Shown here in pieces: positions 7,660 to 51,081 of a stretch of DNA of 64,000 bases. A program made the position numbers and the translations under genes. The notes below the pieces were generated by a model. That model was not told the DNA's origin. It searched no databases and worked only from the letters and a program-made list of their open reading frames with translations. Source of the DNA: an uncultured Solirubrobacteraceae bacterium (GTDB lineage: Bacteria; Actinomycetota; Thermoleophilia; Solirubrobacterales; Solirubrobacteraceae). Position 1 is the stretch's first letter. Each line of letters opens with the position of its first letter. Where the stretch lies: contig CAVUUL010000006.1 of NCBI GenBank assembly GCA_963744685.1, positions 301,749 through 365,748 on the forward strand, given 5' to 3'.

Positions 7660-7673
7660 CTGAGGTGTGGAGA

Positions 7674-8956: not shown

Positions 8957-8967
8957 CCCCTCGACCC

Positions 8968-9040: not shown

Positions 9041-9116
9041 CTGCCCGCTCACTCGACGGCGCCTGCCGGTGCACCACGGCGTCGCAGGGCATCGAGAACG
9101 TTTGGATCGATGCGCT

Positions 9117-17871: not shown

Positions 17872-18037
17872 GGCGGTCCGGCGGGCTCACGCGGCCATCC
17901 GTCCAGTCCCGGCGGCCGCCGGTCGGGATCCGCCCCTGGATGACCGATCCCTCCTCAAGTGCCTGCGGCGGCGCGCGCTGCCTGCGACCCGCGGGATACC
18001 GGTCACGACCAGCCGAACTCAGGGGGAGGAGCCAGCG

Positions 18038-29549: not shown

Positions 29550-29567
29550 GGAGGGTGGGGTGATGCG

Positions 29568-29975
29568 GACGGTTCGCGATGTGGCATGCCGTGACGCCGG
29601 CCGTCAAGCAGCGCCCGCACTCCCATGGCCTCCGTGCGAGGTTTCGGGCGCTGCTTGACTGCCGTCGCCCCGTCATGCCATCGGCAGTGAGGTCGAGCCC
29701 ACTTCGTGTGCACGACCTCGCGCCAACTGCGACTGTCCGGACGGCACTGATCACCCACCCGCGACGGGCTGCGCGCCAGGTTGGGGGATCTTCTCCGTGA
29801 GGCGGATCGGATCACCCACACGGCCTCGGACCGTGCGGTGAGTGGGCGAAACGTTCCCCCGGAGACGCCAGCTGGGCATCAAACGCAAGCAGGGCTGTCG
29901 TTTGATGCCCAGGTCCCTCGTTCGGACGGCTCACATCAGCCCAAGTGCGGGACGCTGCTTGACGGCGGACGCCAG
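29568..29975 (+). repeat. Structured repeat element, copy A (terminal inverted repeats 29601-29620 and 29945-29965)
   Basis: It is the reverse complement of 46293-46800. It contains three TCAAGCAGCG cores and several long hairpins. No credible CDS. Confidence 0.85.
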
Positions 29976-30004
29976 TGAGACCACCCGCGTCTCGCATTGG
30001 ACGC

Positions 30005-30307
30005 TCAGGACTGCTGCTTGACCCAGTCGAGGATCGCGCGGGAATGGTGCAACACGGTCCCGTCGGGCAGGCGCATCGCGGGCAGCTTCGTGTCGCCGGT
30101 CACCTCGCGCACCGACTCACGCGAGCCCTTACGCAGAAACGGGATCGGGCTGCCGTGGGCGGCGACCTGCTTGTCGTAATCGATGCCCGCCGCGCGAAGC
30201 GCCTCCTGGACCCGGCGGCAGGGGTGCATCGCGATGCCGCCATCGTCGCCGTGGCACACCAGCAGGAGCGGCTTCTCCCCGGTGGACGGCTCGTCTTGCA
30301 CTGACAT
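30005..30307 (-). CDS. Glutaredoxin-like / GST N-terminal (thioredoxin-fold) protein
   Basis: ...LLLVCHGDDGGIAMHPCRRVQEALRAAGIDYD...TGDTKLPAMRLPDGTVLHHSRAILDWV. I chose the ATG at 30307. Confidence 0.65.
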   Translation of the reverse strand: MSVQDEPSTGEKPLLLVCHGDDGGIAMHPCRRVQEALRAAGIDYDKQVAAHGSPIPFLRKGSRESVREVTGDTKLPAMRLPDGTVLHHSRAILDWVKQQS

Positions 30308-30351
30308 CGCCTCTCCTCTCGATCGGCGCACGGCGCCATTACGATGCAGAT

Positions 30352-30618
30352 GTGAGCACCGCAACCGTACCGGGTGGCGTCGTGCATGAGTTGCCCGCAG
30401 ATCTGCACGACGCCCTCCTGCGCAACCCCACCGCGCTGGACCGTTGGAAGGACATCACGCCGCTCGCGCGCAACGAGTTCATCTGCTGGGTCGAGGACGC
30501 CAAGCAGGCGACGACCCGGGAACGGCGGATCCGTCGCACTCAGGAGGAGCTGGAGGACGGCATGCGCCGTCCCTGCTGCTGGCCCGGGTGCCAGCACCGC
30601 GAGCGCAACGGCCATTGA
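30352..30618 (+). CDS. YdeI/OmpD-associated family protein (short form)
   Basis: ...WKDITPLARNEFICWVEDAKQATTRERRIRRT...RRPCCWPGCQHR. GTG start. Confidence 0.65.
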   Translation: MSTATVPGGVVHELPADLHDALLRNPTALDRWKDITPLARNEFICWVEDAKQATTRERRIRRTQEELEDGMRRPCCWPGCQHRERNGH

Positions 30619-30637
30619 CCCAGGCCGCCGGCGGCCC

Positions 30638-30886
30638 CTACTGCCAGTAGCCCTCGACGGTCTCGCCGGAGCGTTCTTCGGCGTCGTCCGGATCCATCCC
30701 CGCGTCGCGGAGGGCGCGGCGCTGGCGCTGGAGATCCCATAGCCGGTCGAGCTCGACGCGGATCTCCTCCAGCCGCTTCGCGTCGCCGGAGACCGACCCG
30801 TGCGTGGTGCTCTCGTCGCGGCGCAGGAGCTCGCGCTCCTCCTCGAGTTGCTCGATCTTGCGGCTGATCTGCTCGTCGCTCGGCAC
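30638..30886 (-). CDS. DUF2630-like small coiled-coil protein
   Basis: The GTG at 30886 is preceded by AAGGAGG with a 7-nt spacer. Sequence ...DEQISRKIEQLEEERELLRRDES...LDRLWDLQRQRRA. Confidence 0.6.
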   Translation of the reverse strand: MPSDEQISRKIEQLEEERELLRRDESTTHGSVSGDAKRLEEIRVELDRLWDLQRQRRALRDAGMDPDDAEERSGETVEGYWQ

Positions 30887-30974
30887 GGCGTGACCTCCTT
30901 CGATCCTCGGACGTGTCCGAACTCTACGGACCTGGCTGCCGGTGCGAAAGGTCGTCGTAGCATCGGCCGGCGAG

Positions 30975-32213
30975 ATGATCGAGCGGCTGTTCCCGGCGCG
31001 CCTCGGCTCTGGGTTCCGATGGCTGGTCGGCTCCTCGTGGGCGGCCGATCTGGGGGACGGCTTCGCGGTCGCCGCCGGCCCGCTGCTGGTGGCATCGCAG
31101 ACCCACAACGCCAGCCTGGTGGCGTTGGCCCTGCTGCTGCAGCGCCTTCCCTGGCTGCTGTTCGCGCTCCTCGCCGGGGCGGTTGCCGACCGCGTCGGCC
31201 GAGACAGGCTGACCGCGGGCGTCGAGCTGCTCAGAGTCGTCGTGCTGGGGGTGCTGGTGCTCGCGATCCTCACGCACAGCGTGAGCATCGCGGTCGTGCT
31301 GGCGGCGCTGTTCCTGATCGGGACCGCCGAGGTGTTCAGCCAGACCGCGTCCGGCGCACTGCTCCCGTCACTCGTCGACCGCGACGATCTGATCCTCGGC
31401 AACTCGCGGATCCTCACCGGCCGGGTGACGCTGAACCAGCTGGCCGGCCCTGCTCTCGGCGCGTTGTTGTTCGCCGGCGGCATGGCATGGCCGTTCCTCG
31501 GGCAGGCCGTGCTGGTCGCCGCGGGCGCCGCGATGATCCTGCGGATCTCGCTGCCGGCCCGCGCGCCGGCGGAGGCGCCCGCGCATCTGTGGGGCGAGGT
31601 CGTCGAGGGCTGCCGGTGGACATGGCAGCACGCGGGCGTGCGCACGCTCGTGCTCACGATCTTCATCTTCAACATCACCTTCGGGGCGGCGTGGTCGGTG
31701 CTCGTCCTCTACGCCGAGGAGCGGCTGCACCTCGGCGCCGTCGGATTCGGGCTGCTCACCACCGCGATGGCGGTCGGCGGGGTCGTCGGCAACCTGGGTT
31801 ACGGATGGCTGATCCGGCGGGTGAGCCTCGGCAACATCATGCGCGTCGGCCTGATCATCGAGACGCTCACGCACCTGTCGCTCGCACTGACGACCGTCCC
31901 GGTGATCGCGATGGGGATCATGGTCGTGTTCGGCGCGCATGCGTTCATCTGGGGCTCGACGTCGGTCACCGTCCGGCAGCAGGCCGTGCCCGAGGCGCTG
32001 CAGGGCCGGGTCTCCAGCGTCAACGGACTCGGTGTGTATGGCGGTCTGGTGTTCGGCGCCGCGCTCGGCGGGCCGATCGCGAGCCAGTTCGGGGTGACCG
32101 GGCCGTTCTGGTTCGCGTTCGGCGGCTCGGGCGTCTTCCTTGTGCTGATGTGGCGCCAGCTCAGCCACGTCGCCCACGAGGAGACGCAGCCGGTCACCGC
32201 GCCGACGGTGTGA
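30975..32213 (+). CDS. MFS transporter
   Basis: 12-TM pattern with ...LADRVGRDRL... loop motifs. An alternative start lies at 30942. Confidence 0.8.
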   Translation: MIERLFPARLGSGFRWLVGSSWAADLGDGFAVAAGPLLVASQTHNASLVALALLLQRLPWLLFALLAGAVADRVGRDRLTAGVELLRVVVLGVLVLAILTHSVSIAVVLAALFLIGTAEVFSQTASGALLPSLVDRDDLILGNSRILTGRVTLNQLAGPALGALLFAGGMAWPFLGQAVLVAAGAAMILRISLPARAPAEAPAHLWGEVVEGCRWTWQHAGVRTLVLTIFIFNITFGAAWSVLVLYAEERLHLGAVGFGLLTTAMAVGGVVGNLGYGWLIRRVSLGNIMRVGLIIETLTHLSLALTTVPVIAMGIMVVFGAHAFIWGSTSVTVRQQAVPEALQGRVSSVNGLGVYGGLVFGAALGGPIASQFGVTGPFWFAFGGSGVFLVLMWRQLSHVAHEETQPVTAPTV

Positions 32214-32292
32214 CCCTCCTCGTGGGTGGTGGCGTGGACGTGCAGGCGCACGCGTACCCGCCCAATCATCGGACGCTCGGGGCGCGCGTCCT

Positions 32293-33231
32293 CTACAGCT
32301 CGGCCCGGGCGCCCTCGGCGCGGGCCGCACCGGCCATCGCCACCGCGGTGGCGATGGCCATCAGCACGGCCGCGGCCAGCAGCCTTGGCACGACGGGCGA
32401 AGGATGGGCGACCGTCGAGCCACCGGTGAGCGCCCCGGGCGCGTCGGCACCGACGACGGCCCACCAGACGAGCGCCGCCGCGGTCATCGCCGTCATCGCA
32501 ACCGCGACCGCGGGCGCGATCCACGCCTGAGCTCGCAGCACCCGCCGGTCAGAGCGGATGTCGGAGGCGATCCTCGTGGCCACCGACGTCCATGCGAACA
32601 GGCAGGCCGCGACGAGCGCGCCCCAGCCGACGAATGCCGCGGCGTAGATGTGATCGTGACCGTTGCGATCGGCGGAGCTGAGGCCGTGACCCCAGGCGGA
32701 GACGGCGACCGTCGCCGCGATCACGACGACGGTGAGTATCACCGCGGTCACGGTCCGCCCGCGGATCCGCCCCCAGCCGCCCTCGCGCAGCAGCCGCCAG
32801 ACGGCGGGGAGCGACAGCCCGATCCCGCCGGCGATCAGTGCCGCCGCCGCAAACGCCACCACCTGGAGCACGGAGAACGCCACGTGCGCCGCGGATGCTC
32901 CCGGCAGCGCCTGCTGCCAATGCTCGCTCGTCTTGGCGAGGATCGCTCCTGCGATGACGAACAGCGCCCACGCCCAAAGCACCAGCGACGTGCCCCCGCG
33001 GACGCGCCGGCTCGGATCTCCGGTGCCACGCAGCCGCTGTCGCACCGCCGAGCGCAGCAGGTCGCCGCGCATGCGCGGACCGGTGTCCCGGCCATCGGCG
33101 TGCATGTCGAGGATCAGGGCGTCGAGCTCGTCGCCGTAGCGACGGCGCCACGTGGCCGGATACAGCGCAAGCAGCGTGGTCGGCCCCGGGGTGAACCGCC
33201 GGCGTGCCGGCTTGTCGTACCGAGCACTCAC
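32293..33231 (-). CDS. Membrane protein co-transcribed with PadR
   Basis: Cytoplasmic N-terminus (YPATWRRRYGDELDAL), then about 6 TM helices. Its start overlaps the PadR stop by 4 nt. Confidence 0.6.
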   Translation of the reverse strand: MSARYDKPARRRFTPGPTTLLALYPATWRRRYGDELDALILDMHADGRDTGPRMRGDLLRSAVRQRLRGTGDPSRRVRGGTSLVLWAWALFVIAGAILAKTSEHWQQALPGASAAHVAFSVLQVVAFAAAALIAGGIGLSLPAVWRLLREGGWGRIRGRTVTAVILTVVVIAATVAVSAWGHGLSSADRNGHDHIYAAAFVGWGALVAACLFAWTSVATRIASDIRSDRRVLRAQAWIAPAVAVAMTAMTAAALVWWAVVGADAPGALTGGSTVAHPSPVVPRLLAAAVLMAIATAVAMAGAARAEGARAEL

Positions 33232-33554
33232 GCGAGCGCTCCGGCGGACGTCATCCGCGCGGCCAGCCTGCGGCTGCCCTCATCGGCGATCGCCCGAAGC
33301 TCGGCGAGCGCGTCGCTCAGCTCCTGCGCGCCGGCCGCGGTCAGGCGGTAGGGCCGTCGGCGGCCCGACTCCTCGACGGGCTCGATCATCCGGCGCTCCT
33401 CCAACCGGGTGATCGCGCCATAGAGCGTCCCGGGCCCGAGTGTCACGCCGGCGAACCGCTCGATGTCCTGCAGAAGTGCGTATCCGTGCTTGTCGCCCGA
33501 GGCGAGGCTCGTGAGGATCAAGAGCGTCGGATCGTTGGGTCTCGTAGATGCCAT
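33228..33554 (-). CDS. PadR-family transcriptional regulator
   Basis: LLILTSLASGDKHGYALLQDIERFAGVTLGPGTLYGAITRLEE is the canonical PadR winged helix. Confidence 0.9.
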   Translation of the reverse strand: MASTRPNDPTLLILTSLASGDKHGYALLQDIERFAGVTLGPGTLYGAITRLEERRMIEPVEESGRRRPYRLTAAGAQELSDALAELRAIADEGSRRLAARMTSAGALA

Positions 33555-33561
33555 GGCTTCA

Positions 33562-33601
33562 TGCTACTACGTACAACGTAATAACGCAACGCGTAGTAGC
33601 A
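33562..33601. promoter_or_regulatory. Candidate PadR operator: perfect 10-bp inverted repeat TGCTACTACG-N20-CGTAGTAGCA
   Basis: Lies in the AT-richer divergent intergenic region, 8 nt upstream of the padR start and ~105 nt upstream of the ABC ATPase start. Confidence 0.45.
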
Positions 33602-33705
33602 GTTTGGGTGTCATGTGTGTCACCGATTGTCGCGGGGTGAGAACGCACTGAGAGCTGCGGCCCGTATGAGAAGCCGCCTTATCCGCGGGGTCTACCGTCC
33701 GGTTG

Positions 33706-34647
33706 GTGATCGAGGTCCGCAACCTCACCAAGCGCTACGGGGACCAGCTCGCGGTCCAGGATCTGACGTTCACGGTCGAGCCGGGAGTCGTCACCGGTTT
33801 CCTCGGCCCCAACGGATCGGGGAAGTCGACCACGATGCGGCTCGTGCTCGGCCTTGACGCGCCGACGAGCGGCACGGCGCTGGTCGGCGGTCGCCGCTAC
33901 GCCGAGATCCCCGACCCGTTGCGTGAGATCGGAGCGATGCTGGAGGCGCGCGCCATCCACGGCGGCCGCTCTGCGCGCAACCACCTCCGCGCGCTCGCGG
34001 CCACCCATGCGATCCCGGATCGCCGGGTCGAGGAGGTGATCGAGCTCGTCGGTCTCTCCCAGGTCGCCAACAAGCGGGTCGGCTCGTTCTCGCTGGGGAT
34101 GGGCCAGCGGCTCGGCATCGCCTCCTCGCTGCTCGGTGACCCGCGGACCGTGGTGCTCGACGAGCCGGTCAACGGCCTGGATCCGGAGGGCATCCGCTGG
34201 GTCCGGGATCTGCTGCGCCGGCTCGCCGGCGAGGGCAAGACGGTCTTCCTCTCCTCGCACATGATGAGCGAGATGGCGCTGATCGCCGAACGGCTCGTGG
34301 TCATCGGTCGCGGGCAGCTGATCGCCAACACGAGCGTCGAGACGTTCGTCGCCCGCGCCTCGGAGGCCGCGCCGGTGCTCGTGAAGTCGCCGCGGATCGC
34401 GGAGCTGCACGAGGCGCTGGAGCAGATGGAGTACCGCGCGGAGCCGGAGGGTGAAGATGGCCTGCTCGTCCACGGCGCAGCCGCCGCGGCCATCGGGGAG
34501 CTGGCGGCCAGCCGGTCGATCCCACTGCACGCCCTCACCCCGCAGCAGGTCTCGCTGGAGGACGCGTTCATGCAGCTCACCCGATCGTCGGTCGAGTTTC
34601 ACGCGGGTGTCCCGGTGGCGCCCCCCGCGGAGAAGGCGGCGGCGTGA
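33706..34647 (+). CDS. ABC transporter ATP-binding protein (ABC-2 type, with C-terminal extension)
   Basis: Walker A GPNGSGKST, signature FSLGMGQR and Walker B VVLDEP. Paralog of 26456-27205. Confidence 0.9.
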   Translation: MIEVRNLTKRYGDQLAVQDLTFTVEPGVVTGFLGPNGSGKSTTMRLVLGLDAPTSGTALVGGRRYAEIPDPLREIGAMLEARAIHGGRSARNHLRALAATHAIPDRRVEEVIELVGLSQVANKRVGSFSLGMGQRLGIASSLLGDPRTVVLDEPVNGLDPEGIRWVRDLLRRLAGEGKTVFLSSHMMSEMALIAERLVVIGRGQLIANTSVETFVARASEAAPVLVKSPRIAELHEALEQMEYRAEPEGEDGLLVHGAAAAAIGELAASRSIPLHALTPQQVSLEDAFMQLTRSSVEFHAGVPVAPPAEKAAA

Positions 34648-35474
34648 GCGCGGTCAGCCTCGCTGCGGGCGCCGTCGATGTTCGCCCGGGCCGCATCGTC
34701 ACCCAGCGCCAGGTCCTGCGCTCGGAGTGGATCAAGCTCTGGTCGCTGCGTTCGACCCGCTGGTCGCTGGCGCTCGGGGTTCTCGGTCTGCTGCTCGGCA
34801 TCGTCGTCTCGGCGTTCGTGATGGCGCGCTGGTCGTCGTTCACTTTGCCGCAGCGCCGGCAGTTCTCACCGGTCGACACCGCCCTCGTCGGCTGGCACCT
34901 GGCTGAGCTCGCGATCGGCGTGCTCGGCGTGCTCGTGATCTGCGGTGAGTACTCCACGGGCATGATCCGATCGACGTTCATGGCCGTGCCGGCGCGGCTC
35001 CCCGTCCTCTGGGCGAAGATCGCGGTGTTCGCCGCGGTGACGTTCGCGTTCGCGCTGCCGATGACGTTCGTCGGGTTCTTCGGCGCCGCCGCCGTGCTCA
35101 CCCAGCACCACGTAGCGCCGACGCTCTCCTCGCCGGGCGCCCTGCGATGCCTGCTGGCGATCCCGATCTACCTCGCAGTGCTCGCCGTGTTCACCGTCTC
35201 GCTCGGGGCGCTGCTGCGCAACACGGCCGGCGGCATCGCCGCGTTCGCGGGGATCATCTTCGTGGTCCCGGGGATCGTCAGCGTCCTCTCGACCAGCCTG
35301 CGCAACGCGATCAACCCGTACCTGCCCTCCAACGCGGCCTCCGCGTTCTTCACCGCCCGGCCCGACCCCGCCGACCACCTGCTGCGCCCCTGGGCCGGCT
35401 TCGGTGTCTTCTGCGCCTACACGGCGGCGCTGTTGCTAGCGGCGGCGGTGCAACTCGTCCGGCGAGATGTGTGA
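34644..35474 (+). CDS. ABC-2 permease
   Basis: SEWIKLWSLRSTRW N-terminus and GEYSTGMIR motif. GTGA overlap with the ATPase gene. Confidence 0.85.
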   Translation: MSAVSLAAGAVDVRPGRIVTQRQVLRSEWIKLWSLRSTRWSLALGVLGLLLGIVVSAFVMARWSSFTLPQRRQFSPVDTALVGWHLAELAIGVLGVLVICGEYSTGMIRSTFMAVPARLPVLWAKIAVFAAVTFAFALPMTFVGFFGAAAVLTQHHVAPTLSSPGALRCLLAIPIYLAVLAVFTVSLGALLRNTAGGIAAFAGIIFVVPGIVSVLSTSLRNAINPYLPSNAASAFFTARPDPADHLLRPWAGFGVFCAYTAALLLAAAVQLVRRDV

Positions 35475-36178
35475 GCCGATCGCGTCATCGAGCGCTGCGG
35501 CGCCTGGTGGCCGGGGTGCTCCTGCTTCCGGTCGCGATCCTCGCCGCGACCGCAGGCGCCATCGTCTCGCTGCGCTCGGTCTCTGACGCACCCCAGCTCG
35601 CGCGATCGCAGATGGCCGGTCACGCCGAGGGCACCGCGACGCCGGTGCCGCGCCGCCTCGCCGCGGCGGTGATCGCGACCGAGGACGAGCACTTCGACGA
35701 GGACGTCGTGGTCAACGTGGCGGCTGGAATCGCGCGGGCGGGTCTGGCGGTGCTCGAGGGGCAGACGAACCCGGGCGGCGCGACGATCGACCAGCAGTTG
35801 GCCAAGGCGCTGTACGGCGACGCCGGCGGTGTGCTGGGGGTCGTGCGTCAGATCGGGCTCGGCGTCAAGCTCGGAGCCGACTACTCGCATCATGCGATCC
35901 TCGCGATGTACCTCAACGTCAACTACTACGGCAACGGCTACTGGGGGGTTCGCCAGGCGACGGAGGGCTATTTCGGCACCGCGCCCGCACGGATCACCTG
36001 GCCGGAGGCGGCAATGCTCGCCGGCCTGCTCCAGGCGCCGTCGGCCTACGACCCGCTTCATCATCTCGCGCTCGCGCGCCGGCGCCAGCGCCACGTGCTC
36101 GCGCAACTGGTCGCAAACCACGACCTCACCGCCCGCCAGGCGGCGGCCGACGCGCGCGCCAAGCTGCCGCTGCGCTGA
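35471..36178 (+). CDS. Monofunctional GT51-like peptidoglycan glycosyltransferase (membrane-anchored, 235 aa)
   Basis: GT51 motifs ATEDEHF, GGATIDQQLAK, ILAMYLN and RRRQRHVL. The GTG at 35471 overlaps the permease stop. Confidence 0.75.
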   Translation: MSRSRHRALRRLVAGVLLLPVAILAATAGAIVSLRSVSDAPQLARSQMAGHAEGTATPVPRRLAAAVIATEDEHFDEDVVVNVAAGIARAGLAVLEGQTNPGGATIDQQLAKALYGDAGGVLGVVRQIGLGVKLGADYSHHAILAMYLNVNYYGNGYWGVRQATEGYFGTAPARITWPEAAMLAGLLQAPSAYDPLHHLALARRRQRHVLAQLVANHDLTARQAAADARAKLPLR

Positions 36179-36193
36179 GCGCGACGCCGCCGA

Positions 36194-37099
36194 TCAGGCG
36201 TTGTAGGCGATCATCGACGCCCCGAACAGCAGGCAGTAGATCCCGAAGGGCCACAGCGTCCCCTTCTTGAAATACCGCGTGAGGAAGTGCACCGTGATCA
36301 CGGCGGTGACGGCCGCCACCGCGGCCGCTATCAGCGCGGCCAGGCGCACGCCGTGGTCGCCGTTGGGCCCCAGCAGGTCCGGCAGCTTGAAGATGCCGGC
36401 GGCGAGGATGATCGGCGTGGCGAGCAGGAAGCCGTAGCGCGCCGCGTCGGCGTTGTCGAGGCCGCGCGCAAGGCCGGTGGCCATCACGACCCCGTCGCGG
36501 CTGATGCCCGCGACCAACGCCGTCGACTCGCCGAGGCCGATCCATGCCGCTTCGCGGTACTGCAGCGTCTCCAGTCTCCGGCTCGTGCCCGGGCCGGTTC
36601 CCGATCGCTCGGCGAGCTCGCGGACGGAGGCGCGGCGGCGCAGTCGCTCAGCGCCGATCAGCATGAAGCCGTTGACCGTGAGGAAGATCGCGGCAATCAA
36701 AGGCTTGGCGGTGAGGACGCGCAGCGGGTGCTCGAAGACAAGACCGAGGATCCCGACGGGGATGCTCGCGACCACGATCAGCCAGGCCAGCCGCTCGGTG
36801 GGGGTCTGGACGCTGCGTCGCCGGAGGCTGCCGAAGAACGCTCGGACGAGCTCGATCCAGTCGCGCCAGAAGTAGATGAGCAGCCCGATCGCGCTGCCGA
36901 CGTGAAGCATGACGATGAACGCCAGCCACGGCGACTCGGTCGACCTCGACTGCCAGGCCACAATGTTGTTCCAGCCGAACAGGTGCGGGAACAGAACCGT
37001 GTGCCCGAGGCTGGAGATCGGAAACAGCTCGGAGATGCCCTGGAGGACGCCGAGGACGATCGCCTGGAAGGTCGTGATGAGCGCGCCGAAGGTCAACAC
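36194..37099 (-). CDS. uppP: Undecaprenyl-diphosphate phosphatase
   Basis: GVLQGISELFPISSLGH N-terminal motif, 8-TM BacA/UppP layout and ...PISRDG-like GISRDG. Confidence 0.9.
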   Translation of the reverse strand: MLTFGALITTFQAIVLGVLQGISELFPISSLGHTVLFPHLFGWNNIVAWQSRSTESPWLAFIVMLHVGSAIGLLIYFWRDWIELVRAFFGSLRRRSVQTPTERLAWLIVVASIPVGILGLVFEHPLRVLTAKPLIAAIFLTVNGFMLIGAERLRRRASVRELAERSGTGPGTSRRLETLQYREAAWIGLGESTALVAGISRDGVVMATGLARGLDNADAARYGFLLATPIILAAGIFKLPDLLGPNGDHGVRLAALIAAAVAAVTAVITVHFLTRYFKKGTLWPFGIYCLLFGASMIAYNA

Positions 37100-37321
37100 C
37101 GGATCGCGCTCCGGCTGTCGGAGGGCTCGTAAGTCACAGGCTCACCCTCATTGTGCGGTGCCCGGCGGTCGTAGGCAATCGGGCGCAAGGGTGAGGTTCG
37201 AGAGCGCGACTGTCCGCCAAAAGTCGCAGCTGAGGTCATCCCCTGGTCGCAACGTAACTCAACTCTAACCTGTGACCGCCCGCCCGCGTCGTCCGCCTCA
37301 TCGACCTCTCATCGCCTCGGT

Positions 37322-37687
37322 TCACGGTTGCTCCTCGATGACCGTGCGGATGGCGCTGGAGGACTCGAGCAGAATCACCGCGCTCGCCGCCACCAGCATG
37401 GCGGCGAGCAGCGTCACCACCACCCCGAGGGTGCCCTTTCCGATCGGCCCCGCGCCGATCACGGGGCTGAGCGGGACCGGCAGGACGATCTGGACGGCCA
37501 GCTCGACCGGCGCCACGCGCGACGCGGAGAAATGCTGGAGTGCGCTCATCTCCGCGACCAGCCCGACGCCCCCGCCCACGGCGCTCACCAGGATCCAGCC
37601 GGCGACCGCGTCGGTGTCGCTTCGGTGCAGCGCCGCGGCGGCGAGCGCTGTGCTCATCCCCGAGGCCGCAAAGCACAGGCCGCCCAT
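37322..37687 (-). CDS. Small 4-TM membrane protein
   Basis: Four hydrophobic helices. The start is uncertain: ATG at 37687, or 37786, which would overlap the divergent deacetylase gene. Confidence 0.4.
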   Translation of the reverse strand: MGGLCFAASGMSTALAAAALHRSDTDAVAGWILVSAVGGGVGLVAEMSALQHFSASRVAPVELAVQIVLPVPLSPVIGAGPIGKGTLGVVVTLLAAMLVAASAVILLESSSAIRTVIEEQP

Positions 37688-37711
37688 CGCGGCGCTAGCG
37701 CTACCGATCCC

Positions 37712-38410
37712 ATGAGCGGACGGGCCCTGTTTCGCGGCGCGGTCGGCGCGGCGGTCGTCCAGTTCGCGCCGGCGATCTCGTGCCATGCCCCGCGGGTGTG
37801 CGACATGCTCTCACTGCGCCGCCAGCTCCAGGTCGGGGGGACGGTCGCGCTCACGTTCGACGACGGACCGCACCCCGAGGGGACCGCCGCCGTGCTGTCG
37901 GTGTTGGCCGGCCACGATGCGAAGGCGACGTTCTTTCTCGTGGGCGAGCAGGTCCGGCGCTTTCCTTCGCTGGCGCGGGAGATCGTCGACGCCGGCCACT
38001 CCATCGGTCTGCACGGTGAAACCCACCGCTGCGAGCTGCGATTGACGCCCGGCATGCTCGCCGAAGACCGGGCGCGCGGCCTGGAGTCGATCCACTCCGC
38101 CACCGGCGTGCGGCCGATCATCCACCGACCGCCCTACGGGGCCGCCAGCGGGCCGGGGGTGGCGCACGCGAGACGCGAGGGGATGGAGACCGTCCTCTGG
38201 AGTCGCTGGGGCCGGGACTGGCGCGCCGCGGCGACCGCGGACACGGTGCTGCGCGACGTCACACGCTCCGGCCCCCTCGACCGTGAGATCGTGCTCCTGC
38301 ACGACGCCGATCACTACGCCGCCCATGGGAGCTTCCAGGCGACGGTGGGGGCGTTACCGGGGATCCTCGAGCGCTGCGCCGAGCAGGGGCTCACCCCGGT
38401 GCGGCTCTGA
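37712..38410 (+). CDS. Polysaccharide deacetylase (NodB/CE4 family)
   Basis: TFDDGP, GLHGETH and LLHD motifs. Confidence 0.8.
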   Translation: MSGRALFRGAVGAAVVQFAPAISCHAPRVCDMLSLRRQLQVGGTVALTFDDGPHPEGTAAVLSVLAGHDAKATFFLVGEQVRRFPSLAREIVDAGHSIGLHGETHRCELRLTPGMLAEDRARGLESIHSATGVRPIIHRPPYGAASGPGVAHARREGMETVLWSRWGRDWRAAATADTVLRDVTRSGPLDREIVLLHDADHYAAHGSFQATVGALPGILERCAEQGLTPVRL

Positions 38411-38486
38411 CCGGCGTCTATGCACTGAAGGAGCATCGAACCGGCGATCGTCGCCGACGAAGCCCAGTTGACGGTGAGACGCCCGG

Positions 38487-39140
38487 CTAGGACGCGGAGG
38501 CGCTGGCGAACGCCGTGAACGCCTCGATGACGCTGCGCAGGTGCTCGTGCATTGCCCTCTCGGCCGCCGCGGAGTCGTGGTTGACGACGGCCTCGACGAT
38601 CGCCTCGTGCTGAGGCAGCGAGACGGCGGAGCGTCCGGGAACCAGCGAGAGCGTGAACTGGTGGCGGACGGTGAGGCCGCGGAGCTGCTCGAGCAACTGA
38701 GCGGCGATCGTATGGCCGGAGATCTCCCGCAGCGTCGCGTGCAGGGTCACGTTGAGCTCGCTGTAGCGCATCAGCTCGCCGTTCTCGACCGCGACGCGCA
38801 TGTCCTTGGCGAGCTGCCGGAGCGCCGCCGCCTGCGCTCGGGTCACCCGTTCGGCGGCGCGAGCCGCCTCGTGGCCCTCGAGCAGCATCCGGACCTCGGT
38901 GATCTCGATTGCCTCGCCGAGACTGACGTCTCGCACGCGTGCGCCGCGATTGCGCTGGAACTCGACCAGGCCCTGCGCGGCCAGGTCCTGGAGGGCGGTG
39001 CGGATCTGAAAGCGCGACGCCCCGAACCGCTCGCACAGGTCGGCCTCGATCAGCCGCTGGCGAGGTGCGAAGCTGCCGTCGAGGATCGCGTCCCGGATCC
39101 GGTCCGTGAGGGTGATGATCGGGCTCTCTTCTGGGCTCAT
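38487..39140 (-). CDS. GntR-family regulator (FadR/FCD subfamily)
   Basis: N-terminal wHTH (...QRLIEADLCERFGASRFQIRTALQDLAAQGLV) and an FCD-type helical C-terminus. Confidence 0.9.
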   Translation of the reverse strand: MSPEESPIITLTDRIRDAILDGSFAPRQRLIEADLCERFGASRFQIRTALQDLAAQGLVEFQRNRGARVRDVSLGEAIEITEVRMLLEGHEAARAAERVTRAQAAALRQLAKDMRVAVENGELMRYSELNVTLHATLREISGHTIAAQLLEQLRGLTVRHQFTLSLVPGRSAVSLPQHEAIVEAVVNHDSAAAERAMHEHLRSVIEAFTAFASASAS

Positions 39141-39204
39141 GGCTGCTCGGCGGGGTCTCGACGGGGCGTGGAGGCTGGCACAGACTAGGCCGGCAATCCG
39201 CTGA

Positions 39205-39279
39205 TTGTCAACAAAGCTGAGCCGAGTGAGGCGACTCGTGCAACGATCTCCATTCGAATTCGCGCAATATTGTTGACAT
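39205..39279. promoter_or_regulatory. Two GntR-type operator candidates (TTGTCAACAA at 39205-39214; TTGTTGACAT at 39270-39279)
   Basis: TTGT-NN-ACAA palindromes fit the GntR/FadR t.GT.N.AC.a half-site logic. The two sites share the 9-mer TGTCAACAA in opposite orientation. Confidence 0.4.
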
Positions 39280-39301
39280 TCTGAGCGGTGACGTCTGTAC
39301 T
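39273..39301 (+). promoter_or_regulatory. Candidate promoter TTGACA-N17-TGTACT for the PIG-L/RraA/dioxygenase operon
   Basis: Perfect -35 (39273-39278) and a 4/6 -10 (39296-39301). The predicted TSS is about 39308, at the GTG 39309, which implies a leaderless mRNA. Confidence 0.35.
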
Positions 39302-39308
39302 ACACCTC

Positions 39309-40025
39309 GTGAGTGGTCGCAGATTGTTGGTGATCGGTGCGCATTCCGCCGATTTTGTCTGGCGCGCGGGCGGCGCGATCGCGGTGTGCACCGCCACCGG
39401 CGGCGAGGCGCAGGTGGTTGCGCTCTCCTACGGCGAGCGGGGCGAGTCGGGGGAGCTGTGGAAGCAGGACGACCAGACGACCGAGAACGTCAAGCGCATC
39501 CGCCACGGCGAGGCCGAGCGCGCCGCGGCGCACCTCGGCGCGTCGTTTCGCGCCCTGGATCTCGGTGACTATCCGCTCGAGATCGATTCCGAGGCGCTTC
39601 TGCAGATCACCGACGTGATCCGCGAGTTCGCCCCCGACGTGCTGATCACGCACACCGATACCGACCCGTTCAACCCCGACCATCCGGTGGCCTATCGCGC
39701 GGTCGACCGCGCGCGCAGTCTGGCGGCGGGGGCGGGAGTGCCGAGCTCGTTTCGGACGGTCCGACCGCCGCAGCTGTTCCTGTTCGAGCCCCACCAGCCG
39801 GAGCTGTGCAACTTCACGCCGACGACGTTCCTCGACATCACCGCGGTCTTCGATCGCAAGGTGGCGGCGATGGCGGAGATGAAGGCGCAGGCCTATCTGC
39901 AGACCTACTACCGCGAGCGCGCCGATCACCGCGGCAACCATGCGCGGCGCGCGTCGGGCGACCAGTCGATCCGCCAGGCCGAGGCGTTTCAGCGGGTGAT
40001 ACCGCAGGTGGTGAGTGCGCTGTGA
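39309..40025 (+). CDS. PIG-L/LmbE-family zinc hydrolase, GalB-like (putative 4-oxalomesaconate hydratase)
   Basis: LLVIGAHSADFVWRAGG and HTDTDPFNPDHP metal motifs of the PIG-L fold. Its context with an RraA-like aldolase matches gallate-pathway GalB/GalC. An alternative start lies at 39288. Confidence 0.6.
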   Translation: MSGRRLLVIGAHSADFVWRAGGAIAVCTATGGEAQVVALSYGERGESGELWKQDDQTTENVKRIRHGEAERAAAHLGASFRALDLGDYPLEIDSEALLQITDVIREFAPDVLITHTDTDPFNPDHPVAYRAVDRARSLAAGAGVPSSFRTVRPPQLFLFEPHQPELCNFTPTTFLDITAVFDRKVAAMAEMKAQAYLQTYYRERADHRGNHARRASGDQSIRQAEAFQRVIPQVVSAL

Positions 40026-40657
40026 CCGTCTCGGAGCAGACGCTGCGGGAGCTGGCGCGGCTCGGCGCCGCGACCGTATACGAGGCGGGTGGCCGCGGCC
40101 GGTTCGTCGACGTCGATCTACATCAGATCGTGCCCGGGTCCCGGGTGGCAGGTCCGGCGCGGACGGTGCGCTGCGGTCAGGACGACAACCTGATGGTTCA
40201 CGCCGTGATGGCGTCGGTGCAGCGTGGGGAGATCATCGTCCTGACGATGCCCGAGCCGCGCCCCATCGCGTTGGTCGGCGATCTGCTTGCCACCCAGGCG
40301 CTCACCCAGGGCGCGGCCGGCATGCTGATCGACGCCTCGGTGCGCGACCTCGAGGAGCTGCGCGAGCTGGGCCTGCCGATCTGGGCGCGCTGGGTCCGGG
40401 TGCATGGAGCCGTCAAGGACGTCGTCGGAGCGATCGGTGAGCCGGTCATCGTCGGCGGCGCTCAGATCAGCACCGGCGACGTGCTGGTGATGGACGCCGA
40501 CGGCGTGGCGGTGGTCGAGGCCGGGCGGGCCGAGGAGGTGCTGCAGGCATCGCTTGAGCGGGAGGGGCGCGAGGCGGACAAGCGCGAGCAGCTGCGTGCC
40601 GGAGGCCTGTCCTACGACCTGGACGGATTACGCGCGCGGGTGGAGAGCGGCGGGTGA
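40022..40657 (+). CDS. RraA-family protein, GalC/LigK-like (putative 4-carboxy-4-hydroxy-2-oxoadipate aldolase / oxaloacetate decarboxylase)
   Basis: ...TVYEAGGR...GDLLATQALTQGAAGMLIDASVRDLEEL...GDVLVMDADGV. GTGA overlap with the upstream gene. Confidence 0.7.
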   Translation: MTVSEQTLRELARLGAATVYEAGGRGRFVDVDLHQIVPGSRVAGPARTVRCGQDDNLMVHAVMASVQRGEIIVLTMPEPRPIALVGDLLATQALTQGAAGMLIDASVRDLEELRELGLPIWARWVRVHGAVKDVVGAIGEPVIVGGAQISTGDVLVMDADGVAVVEAGRAEEVLQASLEREGREADKREQLRAGGLSYDLDGLRARVESGG

Positions 40658-41667
40658 CAGCGAACAACGCGCTCACGCGCGATGTCGCGCACATCCATCA
40701 CGCCGAGCTGCTCACCCCGTACCCGGAGCGCAGCGAGCGCTTCTTCGTCGAGCTGTTCGGGATGCAGGTGGTCGCGCGCGAGCGCCAGTCGGTGTTCCTG
40801 CGCGGCTGGGGTGAGACGCAGGTCTACGGCCTGAAGCTCACCGAGGCGCCGCTGCCCGGCCTCGGCCACCTCGCGCTGCGGACCTGGGACGCCGAGGGGC
40901 TGGCGCGGCGGGTGGCCGCGATCGAGGCCACGGGCCTGGGGGAGGGATGGACCGAGGGTGATCTCGGGCATGGCCCTGCCTATCGGTTCCGCGACCCGGA
41001 TGGGCACACCCTGGAGATCCTGTTCGAGGCCTCGCGCTACGCGCCGCCCGACGCGCTTCGCCCGCGGTTGAAGAACGTGCCCCAGCGTCACGTCGATCGC
41101 GGCGCCGCGGTCAAGCGCCTGGACCACGCCAACCTGCTCGCCGCCGATGTGACCGCCTGCCGCGAGTTCTCGGTGCAGACGCTCGGCTGCCGTCTGTACG
41201 AGCAGGTGATCCTCGACTCCGGTGAGGAGGCGGGGGCGTGGATGAGCTTCACCATCGCCGCCCACGAGCTGATCTACACCGCCGACCACATGCGTGGCCG
41301 GGGCCGGCTGCATCATCTCGCCTGGTTCGTCGACACCCGCGAGGAGCTGCTGCGCGCCGCCGACCTGTTCCTCGATGCGGACGTCCCGATCGAGGCGGCG
41401 CCGTCCAAGCACGCTGTCGCTCAGGGGATGTTCCTCTACGTGTATGAGCCCGGCGGCAACCGGGTCGAGGTCACGACGGGCACCCACTTCATCTATGACC
41501 CGGACTACGAGCCGGTCGTCTGGACCGAGGCGGAGCGCCGCCGCGGCCAGGCGTGGGGCGTGGCGACCGTCCCGACCTTCCACACGTACGGCACGCCCGA
41601 TCTGTCCGGTGCTGCGCCCGGGCCACCGATCCCACCGACGAGCCAGATCGTCGGCCCGGAGGTCTGA
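40654..41667 (+). CDS. Type I (two-domain VOC) extradiol dioxygenase, catechol 2,3-dioxygenase-like
   Basis: HAELLT...FRDPDGHTLEI...RLDHANLL...RLHHLAWFV...YVYEPGGNRVE pattern. GTGA overlap with the upstream gene. Confidence 0.8.
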   Translation: MTANNALTRDVAHIHHAELLTPYPERSERFFVELFGMQVVARERQSVFLRGWGETQVYGLKLTEAPLPGLGHLALRTWDAEGLARRVAAIEATGLGEGWTEGDLGHGPAYRFRDPDGHTLEILFEASRYAPPDALRPRLKNVPQRHVDRGAAVKRLDHANLLAADVTACREFSVQTLGCRLYEQVILDSGEEAGAWMSFTIAAHELIYTADHMRGRGRLHHLAWFVDTREELLRAADLFLDADVPIEAAPSKHAVAQGMFLYVYEPGGNRVEVTTGTHFIYDPDYEPVVWTEAERRRGQAWGVATVPTFHTYGTPDLSGAAPGPPIPPTSQIVGPEV

Positions 41668-41706
41668 CGCGCGGTCGCCGCCCCTACGGTCGCGGCGCCC
41701 CCCGGC

Positions 41707-42696: not shown

Positions 42697-42827
42697 GCCT
42701 CATGCGATTTCGGAGGATCAGATCGCGCCGCCGTTCGTGGCCGCCCGCGTCGACTGGTGCTCCCGTCGACCGACCGTATCAGCGGCATCAGTGTTTGGGA
42801 ACCGGTTCCCGGCCAGATCCACCGGGG

Positions 42828-44447: not shown

Positions 44448-44470
44448 GCTCGCAGTGTCGCGCCGCTGGC

Positions 44471-45079
44471 TCAGCGCGGACCCCACGCCGCCGATCGCCG
44501 ATCGCCGATCCAGCTGATCAGCAGCGCCAGCAACGCCATCAGGATCGCCAGGATGACGCAGGTCAGAGCGACGTGGACGTAGCCGCCCTTGCGACTCGCG
44601 TCCAGGAACGGATACGGGTACCAATGGACGATCGGCCCGCGGATCAGCGAGTAGACGAGGTACGCGAGCGGGCCGGCGAGCCACGCGAGAGCGGTCGACC
44701 GCGCGGTGATCGGCCAAGGGTCGAACAGCACCCAGTCGAGGAGGACCGCCAGCGGGACCACGCGGTGCAGGACGTCGTTGACCCACGGCGAGATCAACCC
44801 GACGTCGGTGTTGGCGAGCAGCGCCGCGTAGACGATCCCGGTGATCGTCAGGTAGAGCGTCGTGGCGGCCCTGAGGGTCGACCACCCACGCGAGTCCGGG
44901 TCGACCAGCGCCCCGCCGAGCAGGACCACGCAGCCCACGATGTTGCTCTCGATCGTGAAGAAGCTGAAGAAGTGGCCGAGGTGCTTGGAGCCGGTGGCCG
45001 CGTCGATCAGCGCGGCGGCGCAGAGCAGCCCGACGACGAGTCGTGCCACGCGTACGCCCGTTCTTGCCGGCGGCGCCAT
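44471..45079 (-). CDS. Pr6Pr-family membrane protein
   Basis: FFSFFTIESN motif and 6-TM layout. Confidence 0.65.
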   Translation of the reverse strand: MAPPARTGVRVARLVVGLLCAAALIDAATGSKHLGHFFSFFTIESNIVGCVVLLGGALVDPDSRGWSTLRAATTLYLTITGIVYAALLANTDVGLISPWVNDVLHRVVPLAVLLDWVLFDPWPITARSTALAWLAGPLAYLVYSLIRGPIVHWYPYPFLDASRKGGYVHVALTCVILAILMALLALLISWIGDRRSAAWGPR

Positions 45080-45203
45080 GGCGCCATCAAATCAGGCGGT
45101 GCGCTGTGCGGTGCGCCGACCCTGATTCGCCGAGATGCAGATCTCAGCCGCTCACGCATAGATTTACTGATATCGAAACGCGCAGCTGGAGTATGCTGGC
45201 GCG

Positions 45204-46250
45204 GTGGTGGCTCAGGGGATCCCCGCCCGGGAAGAGGTGAGCGGGTCGCCCCGGGCCGATCGCGTCGCGCGGGCCAACGCCCGCTGGTACTTCGCCGGCC
45301 TCGCCGCATCTCTGATCGGCAACAGCGCCATGTCGCTGGTGGCCGGCATCTGGGTCAAGTCGCTCACGGGCTCCAGCGAGCAGGCGGGGCTGGTGGGCGG
45401 GTGCGTCTACGCGGCCACGCTGCTCGCGCCGTTCGCCGGGCTGCTCGCCGATCGGCTGCCGCGCCGGCCGCTGCTGCTCTGTCTCAACCTGATCGCCGCC
45501 GCAACGGTCGCCCTGCTGCTGCTCGTGCGCTCCCGGGGCGAGGTATGGCTGATCTTCGTGGTGATGGCGGCCTACGGGGTGCAGGCGACGCTCATGGACC
45601 CAGCCGAGGATGCGCTGTTCGCGCAGATGTTCACGACCGAGTTCCGCCGGCGGATCAACGGCTGGCGGCTGACGATCCAGGAGACCGGACGACTCGCCTC
45701 GCCGCTGCTCGGGGCTGGGCTCTTCGTATTGCTCGGCGGGGGCGCCGTGGCCGCGCTCGACGGGGCCACGTTCGTCGTTGCGGCATTCGTCGTCACGCGC
45801 CTGCGGGTTGATGAGTCCGGCGTCGCCACGGTCGTACGGCCAGGTCGGCCGCCCTGCGTGCCGGGATCACCCACATCCAGGGCGCACCCGGCCTGCGGCA
45901 GGTGGCCGTCGCAGCCACGCTCGTCATGGCCCTCTCGGGCGCCGGCGTCGCCGCTCAGTACAGCCTCGTACACGGCATCGGTCAGCGTCCGGCGTTCCTG
46001 GGCGTGCTGTCCGCCCTGCTCGGCGCGGGCTCGATCATCGCCGCCCTCTCGGCCGGCCGGCTGATCGGGTCGCTGGTGAGCGGGCGCGGCGGTGTTCGTG
46101 GCGTCTCGCGGTGGTGGGTCTGGATTGCGGGGTGGTTGGTGGGGAGCGGTGTGGGGGCGCTGGTGCGCGGCGTGGGGGTGTGGTGGTCGTGGCGATCAGC
46201 ATCGCGCAGCGACTCGGCGCCGAGCCCTCCGGGCGGGTCGCGGGGGGGTG
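45204..46250 (+). pseudogene. MFS transporter, frameshifted and 3'-truncated
   Basis: TM1-6 lie in the frame of 45204 and become nonsense after RLRVDES (~45815-45845). The protein continues as RSAALRAGITHIQGAPGLRQVAVAATLVMALSG... in the frame of 45902. A further fragment ...AISIAQRLGAEPSGRV is in a third frame. TM11-12 are absent, and repeat copy B follows. Confidence 0.55.
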
Positions 46251-46292
46251 ACCCTGGGCGTTCGGGGGGGGATGCGCGTCGGGTCGTCGGTC

Positions 46293-46800
46293 GCTCAAGC
46301 AGCGCCCGCGAGGGTTCGTGGGGTCGCGGCGTGAGTCTGTGTGGGGTGGGTGGCGCTGCTGTGACTGCCGTCGCCCCGCCGCGCTATGGGCAATGAACGG
46401 GTCGCGCAGGTGCGCCTCGCACTTGGGCTGGTGTGGGTCGTCCGCGGGAGGGTGCTGGGCATCTGACGTCACTCCTGGTTGCGTGAGATGCCCAGCTCAC
46501 GCTGGGGGCGGAACGTTTTGCGCACCCGCCGCAGCCTCCGAGGCCGTGTGGGTGATGTGGTGCGCCTCGCGGAGAAGATCCCCCAGCCTGACGCGCGGCC
46601 TGTCGCGAGTGGGTCAACGGTGCCGTCCGAACCGTCTGATTTGGCGCGAGGTCGTGCACACGAAGTGGGCTCGACCTCACTGCCGATGGCATGACGGGGC
46701 GACGGCAGTCAAGCAGCGCTACAAACCTCGCACGGAGGCCATGGGAATGCGGGCGCTGCTTGACGGCCGGCGTCACGGCATGCCACATCGCGAACGTCAC
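46293..46800 (-). repeat. Structured repeat element, copy B (inverted relative to copy A)
   Basis: The reverse complement of 46641-46793 is nearly identical to 29568-29726. TCAAGCAGCG cores lie at 46295-46309, 46352-46365, 46708-46719 and 46751-46764. Confidence 0.85.
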
Positions 46801-47122
46801 ACACCACCCCGGCCGACCACACCGCACCGCGCGCCTCCGAGTCCACCACGCCGAGCAACCAACCGCGCCCACCAGATTGTCAGCAATCGCGGCGACGAGA
46901 TGTCCCGTCATCCCGCCGCCACCCACCGACCCGCCACCGCCAATCCGACCACAAGGCGGCACGCCACACGAGTCCGACTGCGCAAGGTGTAGACCTGATC
47001 TCCAACAAGATCGTTTACAATCTGTCCTCGAGGGCTACAGTGGCGGCACACAGAGGAGGGAGCCGGCGGTCGTGGACGTCTGCCGGGTTCTACGAGAGGA
47101 AATCACATGACCCCAGCCGTGT

Positions 47123-51035: not shown

Positions 51036-51081
51036 GCCACCGGGCGGGCATCCGGTCCCGTCGGCGCGGGCCCGCGAGGCC

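Follow-up and report, generated by a model that had tools for sequence, protein, structure and literature searches.

Two structured repeats, copies A and B, stand in inverted orientation on either side of a 16.3-kb block of genes in the window, by which we mean the whole stretch of 64,000 nucleotides (nt) analysed here, taken from an uncultured Solirubrobacteraceae bacterium (assembly GCA_963744685.1, contig CAVUUL010000006.1, positions 301,749 to 365,748). Both copies are very probably dispersed, non-autonomous elements of the kind known as MITEs (transposable elements in miniature, with inverted repeats), derived from the left end of an insertion sequence (IS) of the ISL3 family, and their bracketing of 16 kb is coincidental on this reading. 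The pair is an ordinary kind of object, IS-derived MITEs, of a family that we did not find described. The window has a GC content of 70.6% and its best protein matches are annotated as Solirubrobacteraceae; the Solirubrobacterales are abundant, poorly studied soil Actinomycetota known mostly from metagenome-assembled genomes (MAGs). We could not find the MITE family or its ISL3-type relatives in Solirubrobacterales described before: no Rfam family matches, and a literature search on repeats of Solirubrobacter or Conexibacter gave nothing relevant.

A repeat finder reported a single large inverted pair in the window (29557-29955 and 46412-46810, 399 nt, 85% complementary). Together with MAFFT alignment and exact comparison, this bears out an earlier note, made by reading the letters alone, which had taken the two copies for reverse complements of each other. 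The note had counted about five differences between A 29568-29726 and the reverse complement of B 46641-46793, where the exact comparison of A 29568-29726 with B 46799-46641 gives 6 of 160 columns, and had seen A 29687-29726 as identical to the reverse complement of B 46641-46680; this identity is exact and forms part of a longer perfect match of 79 nt (29648-29726 against 46719-46641). Beyond the first ~160 nt the copies are, as was also claimed, homologous and more diverged (81% identity by MAFFT and exact comparison), but copy B exceeds copy A by 109 nt and not by 60-70 nt, because copy A lacks the 5' arm and the loop of the 3' hairpin. Copy A is a derivative of the long form of the element with an internal deletion of ~109 nt. 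Either strand of the repeat folds about 4.8 standard deviations better than shuffled sequences (z = -4.8). The 5' module consists of the terminus and two hairpins, H1 and H2, the arms of H1 in copy A carrying the motifs GTCAAGCAGCG at 29603-29613 and CGCTGCTTGAC at 29649-29659, while the core contains a long hairpin, H4 (29871-29912), whose pairing is retained through variant sequences, and a conserved CGGACG..CAGCCCAAGTGCG block. The tail of copy A overlaps the stop codon (30005-30007) of the convergent GST_N-like gene.

A covariance model built on the 5' module of the copies (terminus, H1 and H2) matches copy A at 29558-29755 with 166 bits and, over the whole window, finds only copy A and the two ends of copy B. 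The view that nothing else in the window resembles the repeat therefore holds for this module, but not for the element as a whole, since a third, degraded piece lies at 8691-8814. This piece comprises the core only, i.e., the part that is not IS-derived, without the H1/H2 ends, is ~70% identical to copies A and B over ~120 nt, and sits ~150 nt from a tRNA-Glu gene (8968-9041) within a ~1.4-kb stretch (7561-8968) free of confident genes.

With the arms GTCAAGCAGCG / CGCTGCTTGAC as a search pattern, the hairpin was found at 27 loci of a species-representative genome collection, a count that leaves out the window's own genome, which is absent from that collection; 14 of these loci lie within one Solirubrobacteraceae MAG and the remaining ones mostly in Solirubrobacterales MAGs. 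A scan of metagenomes gave 104 further loci, and many contigs from soil metagenomes carry the element. In 34 of the metagenome loci a tblastn screen placed an ISL3 transposase next to the hairpin, and in all 33 loci that include the N-terminus a distance of 137-144 nt (median 140) separates the end of the hairpin from the start codon downstream on the same strand. These transposases are 63-95% identical to the query. The ISL3 transposase is a protein of 411 amino acids (aa) with the Pfam domains DDE_Tnp_ISL3 (7e-70), HTH_Tnp_ISL3 and Zn_ribbon_ISL3, and the ISL3 equivalog model NCBIfam NF033550 (cutoff 180) gave scores of 279 and 266 bits.

The autonomous IS is 1538-1563 bp long (~1.54 kb) and consists of the left inverted repeat (IRL, GGCGCTCCTGCA..TTCCGTGGGTGAGG), the H1-H2 module, the transposase gene and the right inverted repeat (IRR). 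The IRL lies 67-68 nt upstream of the H1 motif, i.e., outside the hairpin, and its sequence GGCGCTCCTGCA..TTCCGTGGGT matches the reverse complement of the IRR ..ACCCACGGWWCCTGCAGGAGAYYC, giving imperfect terminal inverted repeats (TIRs) of ~25-30 bp; past the right end, ...ACCCACGGWWCCTGCAGGAGAYYC, the copies diverge into AT-rich sequence. Six IS copies are flanked by perfect 8-bp AT-rich direct repeats (Table 1), which shows that the IS transposes with 8-bp target-site duplications (TSDs). As the IRL lies outside the hairpin and the duplications outside the inverted repeats, the H1-H2 module, matched in full and once per IS by the covariance model, belongs to the left end of the IS itself, in an internal, subterminal position, and is not what the IS inserts into. 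The idea that the IS targets the hairpin is ruled out by these positions, which also contradict an expressed RNA gene beside which the IS was merely inserted.

Members of the ISL3 family in ISfinder descriptions include ISL3, IS1096, IS31831, IS1001 and IS204. The parents found here agree with the family in their single DDE_Tnp_ISL3 transposase with an N-terminal Zn-ribbon and helix-turn-helix, their inverted repeats and their 8-bp TSDs. They differ in that this clade carries a double-hairpin module of ~170 nt with an invariant motif between the IRL and the transposase start, and the window holds only transposase-less derivatives. The arm motif of H1 (11-12 nt) is invariant in all 20 aligned copies, distant ones included, and in this alignment both partners have changed in a compensatory way at seven base pairs, located in H2 and at the foot of H1, among them the H2 pairs 155/179 (CG in 12 and GC in 8 copies), 157/177 and 161/173. 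Held invariant within a hairpin that covaries, the motif most likely acts in cis at the end of the IS, and for this a binding site of the transposase or a host factor and an RNA-level regulator of transposase expression are plausible candidate roles. With the architecture of ISL3 ends little characterised, the motif hairpin between IRL and transposase offers a testable candidate for a regulatory or transposase-binding site.

Compared with complete IS sequences by blastn, the 5' module of the window's family corresponds to IS positions ~32-214 and the 3' module of the long form to positions ~17-240 in inverted orientation, both at 63-70% identity; nucleotides 391-542 of copy B, for example, align with positions 192 down to 39 of the IS at locus L006 (68%, E = 2e-13). 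The core of the element (~190-230 nt) has no counterpart in the complete IS sequences, and the C/A-rich tail ACCACCCACCCCCCAGGGTCAC resembles the IRR ACCACCCACGGAACCTGCAGGAGATTC, its complement the IRL. The window copies thus derive from the IS but lack its transposase; they carry its left end twice, the second time inverted and in copy A only half kept, around an unrelated core without coding capacity. No transposase lies next to any of 14 copies of the MAG, of 18 metagenomic copies of the close family or of the window copies. We call A and B MITEs because of the two IS left ends, the unrelated core and the missing transposase, and this architecture, IS ends without a transposase, dispersed copies and stable stem-loops, agrees with the definition given in a 2024 review (PMC10969869).

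Table 1. Coordinates of copies A and B, of their parts and neighbouring genes in the window, and target-site duplications (TSDs) of six IS copies at other loci.
Feature	Location	Strand	Length	Evidence or remark
Copy A, MITE-like element	29557-30011 (start approximate)	+	455 nt	repeat finder, alignment to copy B, covariance-model match
H1 of copy A, imperfect hairpin	29581-29681	+	~100 nt	fold
H2 of copy A, second hairpin	29683-29724	+		fold; loop CCCACTTCGTGTG
Core of copy A	29725-29955	+		no detectable IS counterpart; blastn against IS, fold
Residual 3' arm of 3' hairpin and C/A-rich tail of copy A	29954-30011	+		GCTGCTTGAC at 29954-29963
Copy B, complete long-form MITE-like element	46247-46810	-	564 nt	repeat finder, alignment, covariance model
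5' module of copy B (terminus, H1 and H2)	46612-46809	-		homologous to left end of ISL3 IS; covariance model 176 bits; blastn
3' module of copy B (inverted second H1 module)	46274-46425	+		covariance model, opposite strand, 57 bits
Tail of copy B	46247-46273	-		...GCGCATCCCCCCCCGAACGCCCAGGGTCACC; IRR/IRL-like terminus common to other copies, consensus ACCACCCACCCCCCAGGGTCAC
Third, degraded core piece	8691-8814	-		blastn against copy B, 70.7% over 123 nt, E = 1.3e-13
Last gene of ABC-2 operon	28770-29549	+	259 aa	intact; directly 5' of copy A
GST_N-like gene	30005-30307	-	100 aa in relatives	intact; directly 3' of copy A
MFS transporter pseudogene	45204-46189	+		adjoins copy B; Pfam MFS_1 3-187/347; tblastn in two frames
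8-bp TSD	L055			CATTAAAC
8-bp TSD	L116			GTTTATAC
8-bp TSD	L006			CGTTATTT
8-bp TSD	L060			CCGAAAAC
8-bp TSD	L118			GGTTTTCC
8-bp TSD	L070			ACAAATTG

The family occurs in two forms, a long one as in copy B and a short one without the 3' hairpin. In long forms the 3' hairpin (H3) is the reverse complement of the 5' hairpin (H1), loop included; the loops of L025, for instance, agree at 28 of 32 positions when compared inverted and at 9 of 13 when compared directly, and on the opposite strand the 3' end of long forms is recognised in full by the covariance model made for the 5' module. With the 5' module recurring inverted at the 3' end, the long form has TIRs of ~150-200 nt, each of which is a hairpin. 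The copies of the MAG share the 5' module with those of the window at 76-83% identity, and core and tail are also common to both. They sit in unrelated spacers, mostly just past gene 3' ends, and among the first 22 loci no neighbouring protein family recurred. The 3' flank of the kup gene carries a copy in L003 and none in the window, with different downstream neighbours. No match to the element was found in plasmid and phage collections (blastn) or in viral contigs (pattern scan).

Several points weigh against deriving the window copies from the ISL3 left end, or against their bracketing being accidental. No target-site duplication was recovered for the window copies or for any copy of the close family (14 copies searched), and a single 8-bp repeat match at copy B is within chance (~0.2 expected); as the direct repeats of MITEs wane with age (PMC10969869), this weakens the assignment without excluding it. 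The outermost termini of the window and close-family copies are heterogeneous. All sampled IS copies that are autonomous come from a sister subfamily with a hairpin of 72-77 nt and ends 63-70% identical, while the hairpin of the window's subfamily measures 55-59 nt, and no transposase-bearing parent of the latter was found among the loci sampled. Of the bacterium's own genome only the copies in the window are visible, namely two and one fragment, and for the right half of the block (38.4-46.2 kb) no corresponding place was found in relatives. Finally, the H1-H2 module is not exclusive to ISL3 elements, as it also lies ~350 nt past a tyrosine-recombinase gene in tRNA-integrating islands.

If the copies are MITEs, an ISL3 transposase encoded elsewhere would have mobilised them in trans, and they would have landed in gene-poor spacers at gene 3' ends, since AT-rich octamers may be favoured as targets and, in a genome of 70% GC, would be found mostly in spacers and terminators. 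The insertions would by now be old, with decayed target duplications and only fragments left at the copy-A site in relatives, and the inverted layout 16.3 kb apart would be a by-product of copy density. Copies A and B have probably exchanged 5'-module sequence by gene conversion, and an inversion between them would be possible in principle.

Compared with known prokaryotic MITEs such as Correia, ERIC, RUP and QMITE2, the elements are likewise small, non-coding, IS-derived, intergenic and multicopy with TIRs, and share very stable stem-loops, waning direct repeats, a role as recombination hotspots and the occasional truncation of genes (PMC10969869). Their TIRs are, however, ~150-200 nt long, each forming a hairpin, against the ~4-30 bp typical of MITEs (PMC10969869); they are GC-rich (66-72%) and not AT-rich, with 455-564 nt they lie at or above the usual size limit, and no TSD was recovered for them. 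Repetitive extragenic palindromic (REP) sequences and REPINs also form hairpins from two inverted conserved arms, are dispersed downstream of genes and have other mobile elements accumulating nearby, whereas the H1 hairpin travels within a DDE-type IS or a MITE, not by means of an HUH enzyme, and in far fewer copies. MITE- or IS-bracketed composites and IS-mediated inversions resemble our pair in that two inverted IS-derived repeats flank a multi-gene segment, but here there is no flanking duplication, and the segment is largely ancestral and collinear with no sign of having moved or flipped.

H1-H2 might also be more than an IS end. There is a small but appreciable chance that it is a portable cis-acting cassette that either serves as RNA or is bound by a protein of its own. 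The 11-nt motif of its arms stays the same in ISL3 elements with transposases only 63-95% identical, in the MITEs and in tRNA-integrating islands, where it lies ~350 nt past the integrase; these mobile DNAs of Solirubrobacterales, of three unrelated kinds, would then each have kept the module. If so, the well-preserved copy at the ancient copy-A site and the surviving core fragments would point to exaptation by the host, e.g., as a 3'-end stabiliser or an insulator.

The modules in question form a second class with a hairpin of ~73 nt, seen in L016 (3790-6195), L024 (3102-4794), L059, L050, L053, L067, L113, L115 and L008. They lie 330-400 nt past the stop codon of the recombinase gene (~850-940 nt in L016 and L059), and the recombinases are 60-97% identical among themselves, each gene adjoining tRNA-Arg, tRNA-SeC or tRNA-Thr, as in islands that integrate at tRNA genes. 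L022 holds a module of this class without an integrase. In L016, three tandem repeats of ~29 nt (ACACGTCGCCCTCAACCCACGACAGGAAC) stand between the hairpin module and the integrase at ~3960-4050, which may be candidate arm-type binding sites. A tyrosine recombinase as mobiliser of the window copies finds no support, as this enzyme goes with the other hairpin subclass, the one tied to tRNA genes, and the window does not encode it.

The earlier note had regarded the pair as a substrate for recombination and as the boundary of an accessory block. The first part is borne out in so far as the copies, with their 79-nt exact match, have the length and similarity that recombination needs, and A and B seem to have exchanged sequence: their 5' modules are 97.4% identical and their centres 78%, while identities between MAG copies (36 pairs) are 80-89% for the module and 64-88% for the centre. 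These identities are most simply read as a tract of gene conversion, in which A and B were the partners or a third copy took part, and the copies appear to interact by recombination, with no evidence of a crossover. That the pair is an active switch, at which RecA-mediated crossover inverts the 16.3-kb segment and has left the truncated transporter gene and a missing sigma/anti-sigma pair as scars, is unlikely. The inverted layout, the 79-nt exact match within a 160-nt stretch of 96-97% identity, a module identity above that of all 36 other pairs, the absence of a TSD at either copy, the loss of the MFS 3' end and of the ECF sigma pair beside them and the standing of MITEs as recombination hotspots (PMC10969869) would all fit such a switch. 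However, gene conversion needs no crossover, the GC skew shows no reversal, and the relatives L029 and L030 have their genes in the same order and orientation as the window from the left of copy A to 8.4 kb inside the block, with element remnants at the A site of relatives oriented like copy A.

Syntenic contigs were reached via homologues of the ABC-2 gene. Two of them, L029 (from the MAG that holds at least 14 element copies elsewhere) and L030, share the order histidine kinase/response regulator, ABC, ABC-2 and 259-aa genes, a short spacer, anti-sigma and extracytoplasmic function (ECF) sigma factor, GST_N, DUF2630 and MFS, followed in L030 by a 312-aa gene, PadR, Transgly, BacA, a 300-aa gene and a deacetylase. 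Window positions 30005-38425 correspond gene by gene to L030, and in part to L029, in the same order and orientation (tblastn, 74-91% aa identity). The left half of the block is thus an ancestral neighbourhood continuous with the left flank, and its collinearity excludes an inversion between A and B relative to L029 and L030. The detectable break against L030 lies near 38.4 kb, away from both repeat copies. In GC content and skew the block is like its flanks, with no skew reversal, so that a foreign origin finds no support in either.

In the spacers after the 259-aa gene, L028, L029 and L030 carry degraded element pieces in the orientation of copy A, the one in L029 corresponding to the core (E ~ 3e-7) and the one in L030 to the 3' hairpin arm and tail (E ~ 5e-10). 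As the relatives thus have remnants and not empty sites, the insertion of copy A predates the split of the lineages, or the site is a recurrent target. With the left block collinear, flank-like GC, remnants at the same spacer and the element at many unrelated intergenic sites, the idea that the pair bounds an accessory block or marks an inversion is not supported; this is largely the outcome that the earlier note had associated with coincidental bracketing. We infer that the present gene order is ancestral and that the intervening genes are not a cargo unit. They are to be read as an ordinary chromosomal neighbourhood in a rearrangement-prone region, not as mobile or invertible cargo.

Differences from the relatives are found on both sides of the break. 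The anti-sigma gene (245-247 aa) and the ECF sigma-70 gene that stand between ABC-2 operon and GST_N in L029 (12357-13844) and L030 (12351-13798) are missing from the window, where copy A occupies their position (29549-30005). An extra ABC ATPase and permease (33703-35474, +) lie between PadR and the GT51 transglycosylase in the window and not in L030, and at 37325-37696 (-), next to uppP, only ~124 residues of the 300-aa gene of L030 are left. A module of GntR, PIG-L, RraA-like and glyoxalase genes at 38487-41667 is placed 8 kb upstream of the sugar-ABC operon; in L035 (13913-17838) the same module follows directly downstream of that operon, after DUF6282, which in the window remains downstream of it (50983-51960). 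This placement suggests that the module is a paralogous one or that genes were rearranged locally. Upstream of the sugar-binding protein, relatives differ in their neighbouring genes, which, together with the different place of the GntR module, marks the region as prone to rearrangement.

Stable folding raises the possibility that the copies encode a structured non-coding RNA, or serve as a stabiliser or terminator in 3' untranslated regions, and are kept for this function and not as selfish DNA; we consider this quite improbable. The folding score (z = -4.8), the compensatory changes in H1, H2 and the core hairpin H4, the persistence of the core alone in the L029 remnant and at 8691-8814 and the position of most copies just downstream of gene ends speak for a function, and several majority G.U pairs with few A.C pairs on the strand of copy A (+) hint at one functional strand, though the copies are closely related and such counts are not independent samples. 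On the other hand, both strands fold equally well, palindromic DNA can retain pairing through processes at the DNA level, the best-conserved part is an IS end inside inverted repeats and TSDs, and copies decay into fragments in relatives. An Rfam scan, which had been suggested as a check, found no family over the element at the gathering threshold, which only a tRNA passes in the window, and permissive scans of both copies (E < 10) gave chance miRNA-like hairpin matches only. Predictions for copy A and for the left end of the IS gave neither a sigma-70 promoter, for which TTGACA in the 3' arm of H1 was considered as a -35 box, nor an intrinsic terminator.

It is very improbable that A, B and the DNA between them form a composite transposon, a 17-kb unit moved by an ISL3 transposase acting in trans. 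The IRL-type 5' ends of both copies do face outward, MITE-flanked integrons and MITE-bracketed segments are documented (PMC10969869), and the block had been read as a mosaic of regulator-plus-cargo modules; but the pair is not flanked by an 8-bp duplication, synteny in relatives joins the first 8.4 kb of the block to the left flank, these relatives already carry element remnants at the A site, and the composition is identical to that of the flanks. Next to no chance is left for H1 being a REPIN-like REP doublet mobilised by a RAYT (TnpA_REP, HUH) transposase: the two inverted arms with an invariant motif, a stem base GGTAGCGCG...CGCGCTACC that recalls the GTAG head of REPs and the clustering of IS elements and integrases near some copies recall such a system, but copies number in the tens and not hundreds, no Y1/HUH transposase occurs in any locus protein examined, and the position of the hairpin inside a DDE-type ISL3 element, with inverted repeats, 8-bp duplications and a fixed distance of 137-144 nt to the transposase start, effectively refutes membership.

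With regard to the immediate surroundings of the MITE copies, copy A lies between the stop codons of two convergent genes, the last gene of the ABC-2 operon and the GST_N-like gene, and copy B between the truncated MFS gene and the start of the sugar-ABC operon. As the 259-aa gene ends at 29549 with a conserved C-terminus, the element begins after it and the preceding G/T-rich sequence is coding; an IRL of copy A reaching into this gene was ruled out by the conservation of the C-terminus in orthologues. The MFS gene had been described as broken exactly where copy B begins. The truncation next to copy B is real, but homology ends at ~46189 (residue ~322 of 415) and the terminus of copy B is at 46247. 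Its open reading frame (ORF) at 45204-46064 aligns to full-length relatives (~415 aa) only up to residue ~206; with the full-length homologue P0247, tblastn finds the next part in another frame at 45851-46189, the frame changing near 45820-45850, and detects nothing of the final ~90 residues, whether before or after copy B. Since the nearby sugar-ABC permease is likewise split, over three frames, an error of the assembly may account for the frameshift.

This permease (50005-51029, +) is divided into 50005-50592, 50594-50926 and 50928-51029, with 80-94% identity to intact orthologues, and represents either a pseudogene or indel errors of the assembly.

Copies A and B are each without a target duplication and each adjoin missing DNA, which would fit old insertions followed by adjacent deletions. 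As the earlier note had stated, no transposase, integrase or recombinase domain was found in the window ORFs scanned, and IS and integrase proteins from relatives' loci (ISL3, IS5, integrase) had no tblastn match in the window. A site-specific invertible segment of the invertase or shufflon type was likewise discarded, since the window ORFs scanned hold no recombinase domain and the integrases of the loci have no match there.

Repeats of this kind break assemblies, can truncate genes and can be mistaken for structured RNAs. As expected of repeats that break assemblies, 48 of 106 hairpins lie at most 300 nt from a locus end. Look-ups of exact proteins encoded in the flanks had one informative outcome, a Logan contig of 2,662 nt from sample ERR11571141. 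Its ABC-2 proteins are identical to those of the window, and it stops within H1 of copy A, at ~29600; this sample thus contains the same strain or one nearly identical to it, its assembly breaking at the repeat.

Individual loci showed further variants. In L015 (~1300-1730) the apical part of H1 is cleanly deleted (..GATGTGGCATGCCGT|TCGCAATGG..), with H2, core and 3' hairpin intact. In L086 two modules, at 53-264 (-) and 2345-2549 (+), are separated by 2.1 kb and point towards one another with their 5' (IRL-side) ends, and no match to an ISL3 transposase or an integrase was found between them. In a distant copy in L011 (2490-2810), ~59 nt (GCGTGGGCAGAAATGCCACCCGGGACAGCACCATCGCCCACGCGCCCGC..) that separate the two hairpins are duplicated in tandem. 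Other transposases were seen as well: L016 encodes an IS5/IS1182-like DDE transposase at 1806-3356 (+), ~430 nt from the module, and L031 an IS3-family (rve) transposase at 17004-18262 (-), downstream of the ABC-2 operon at the point where synteny with the window ends.

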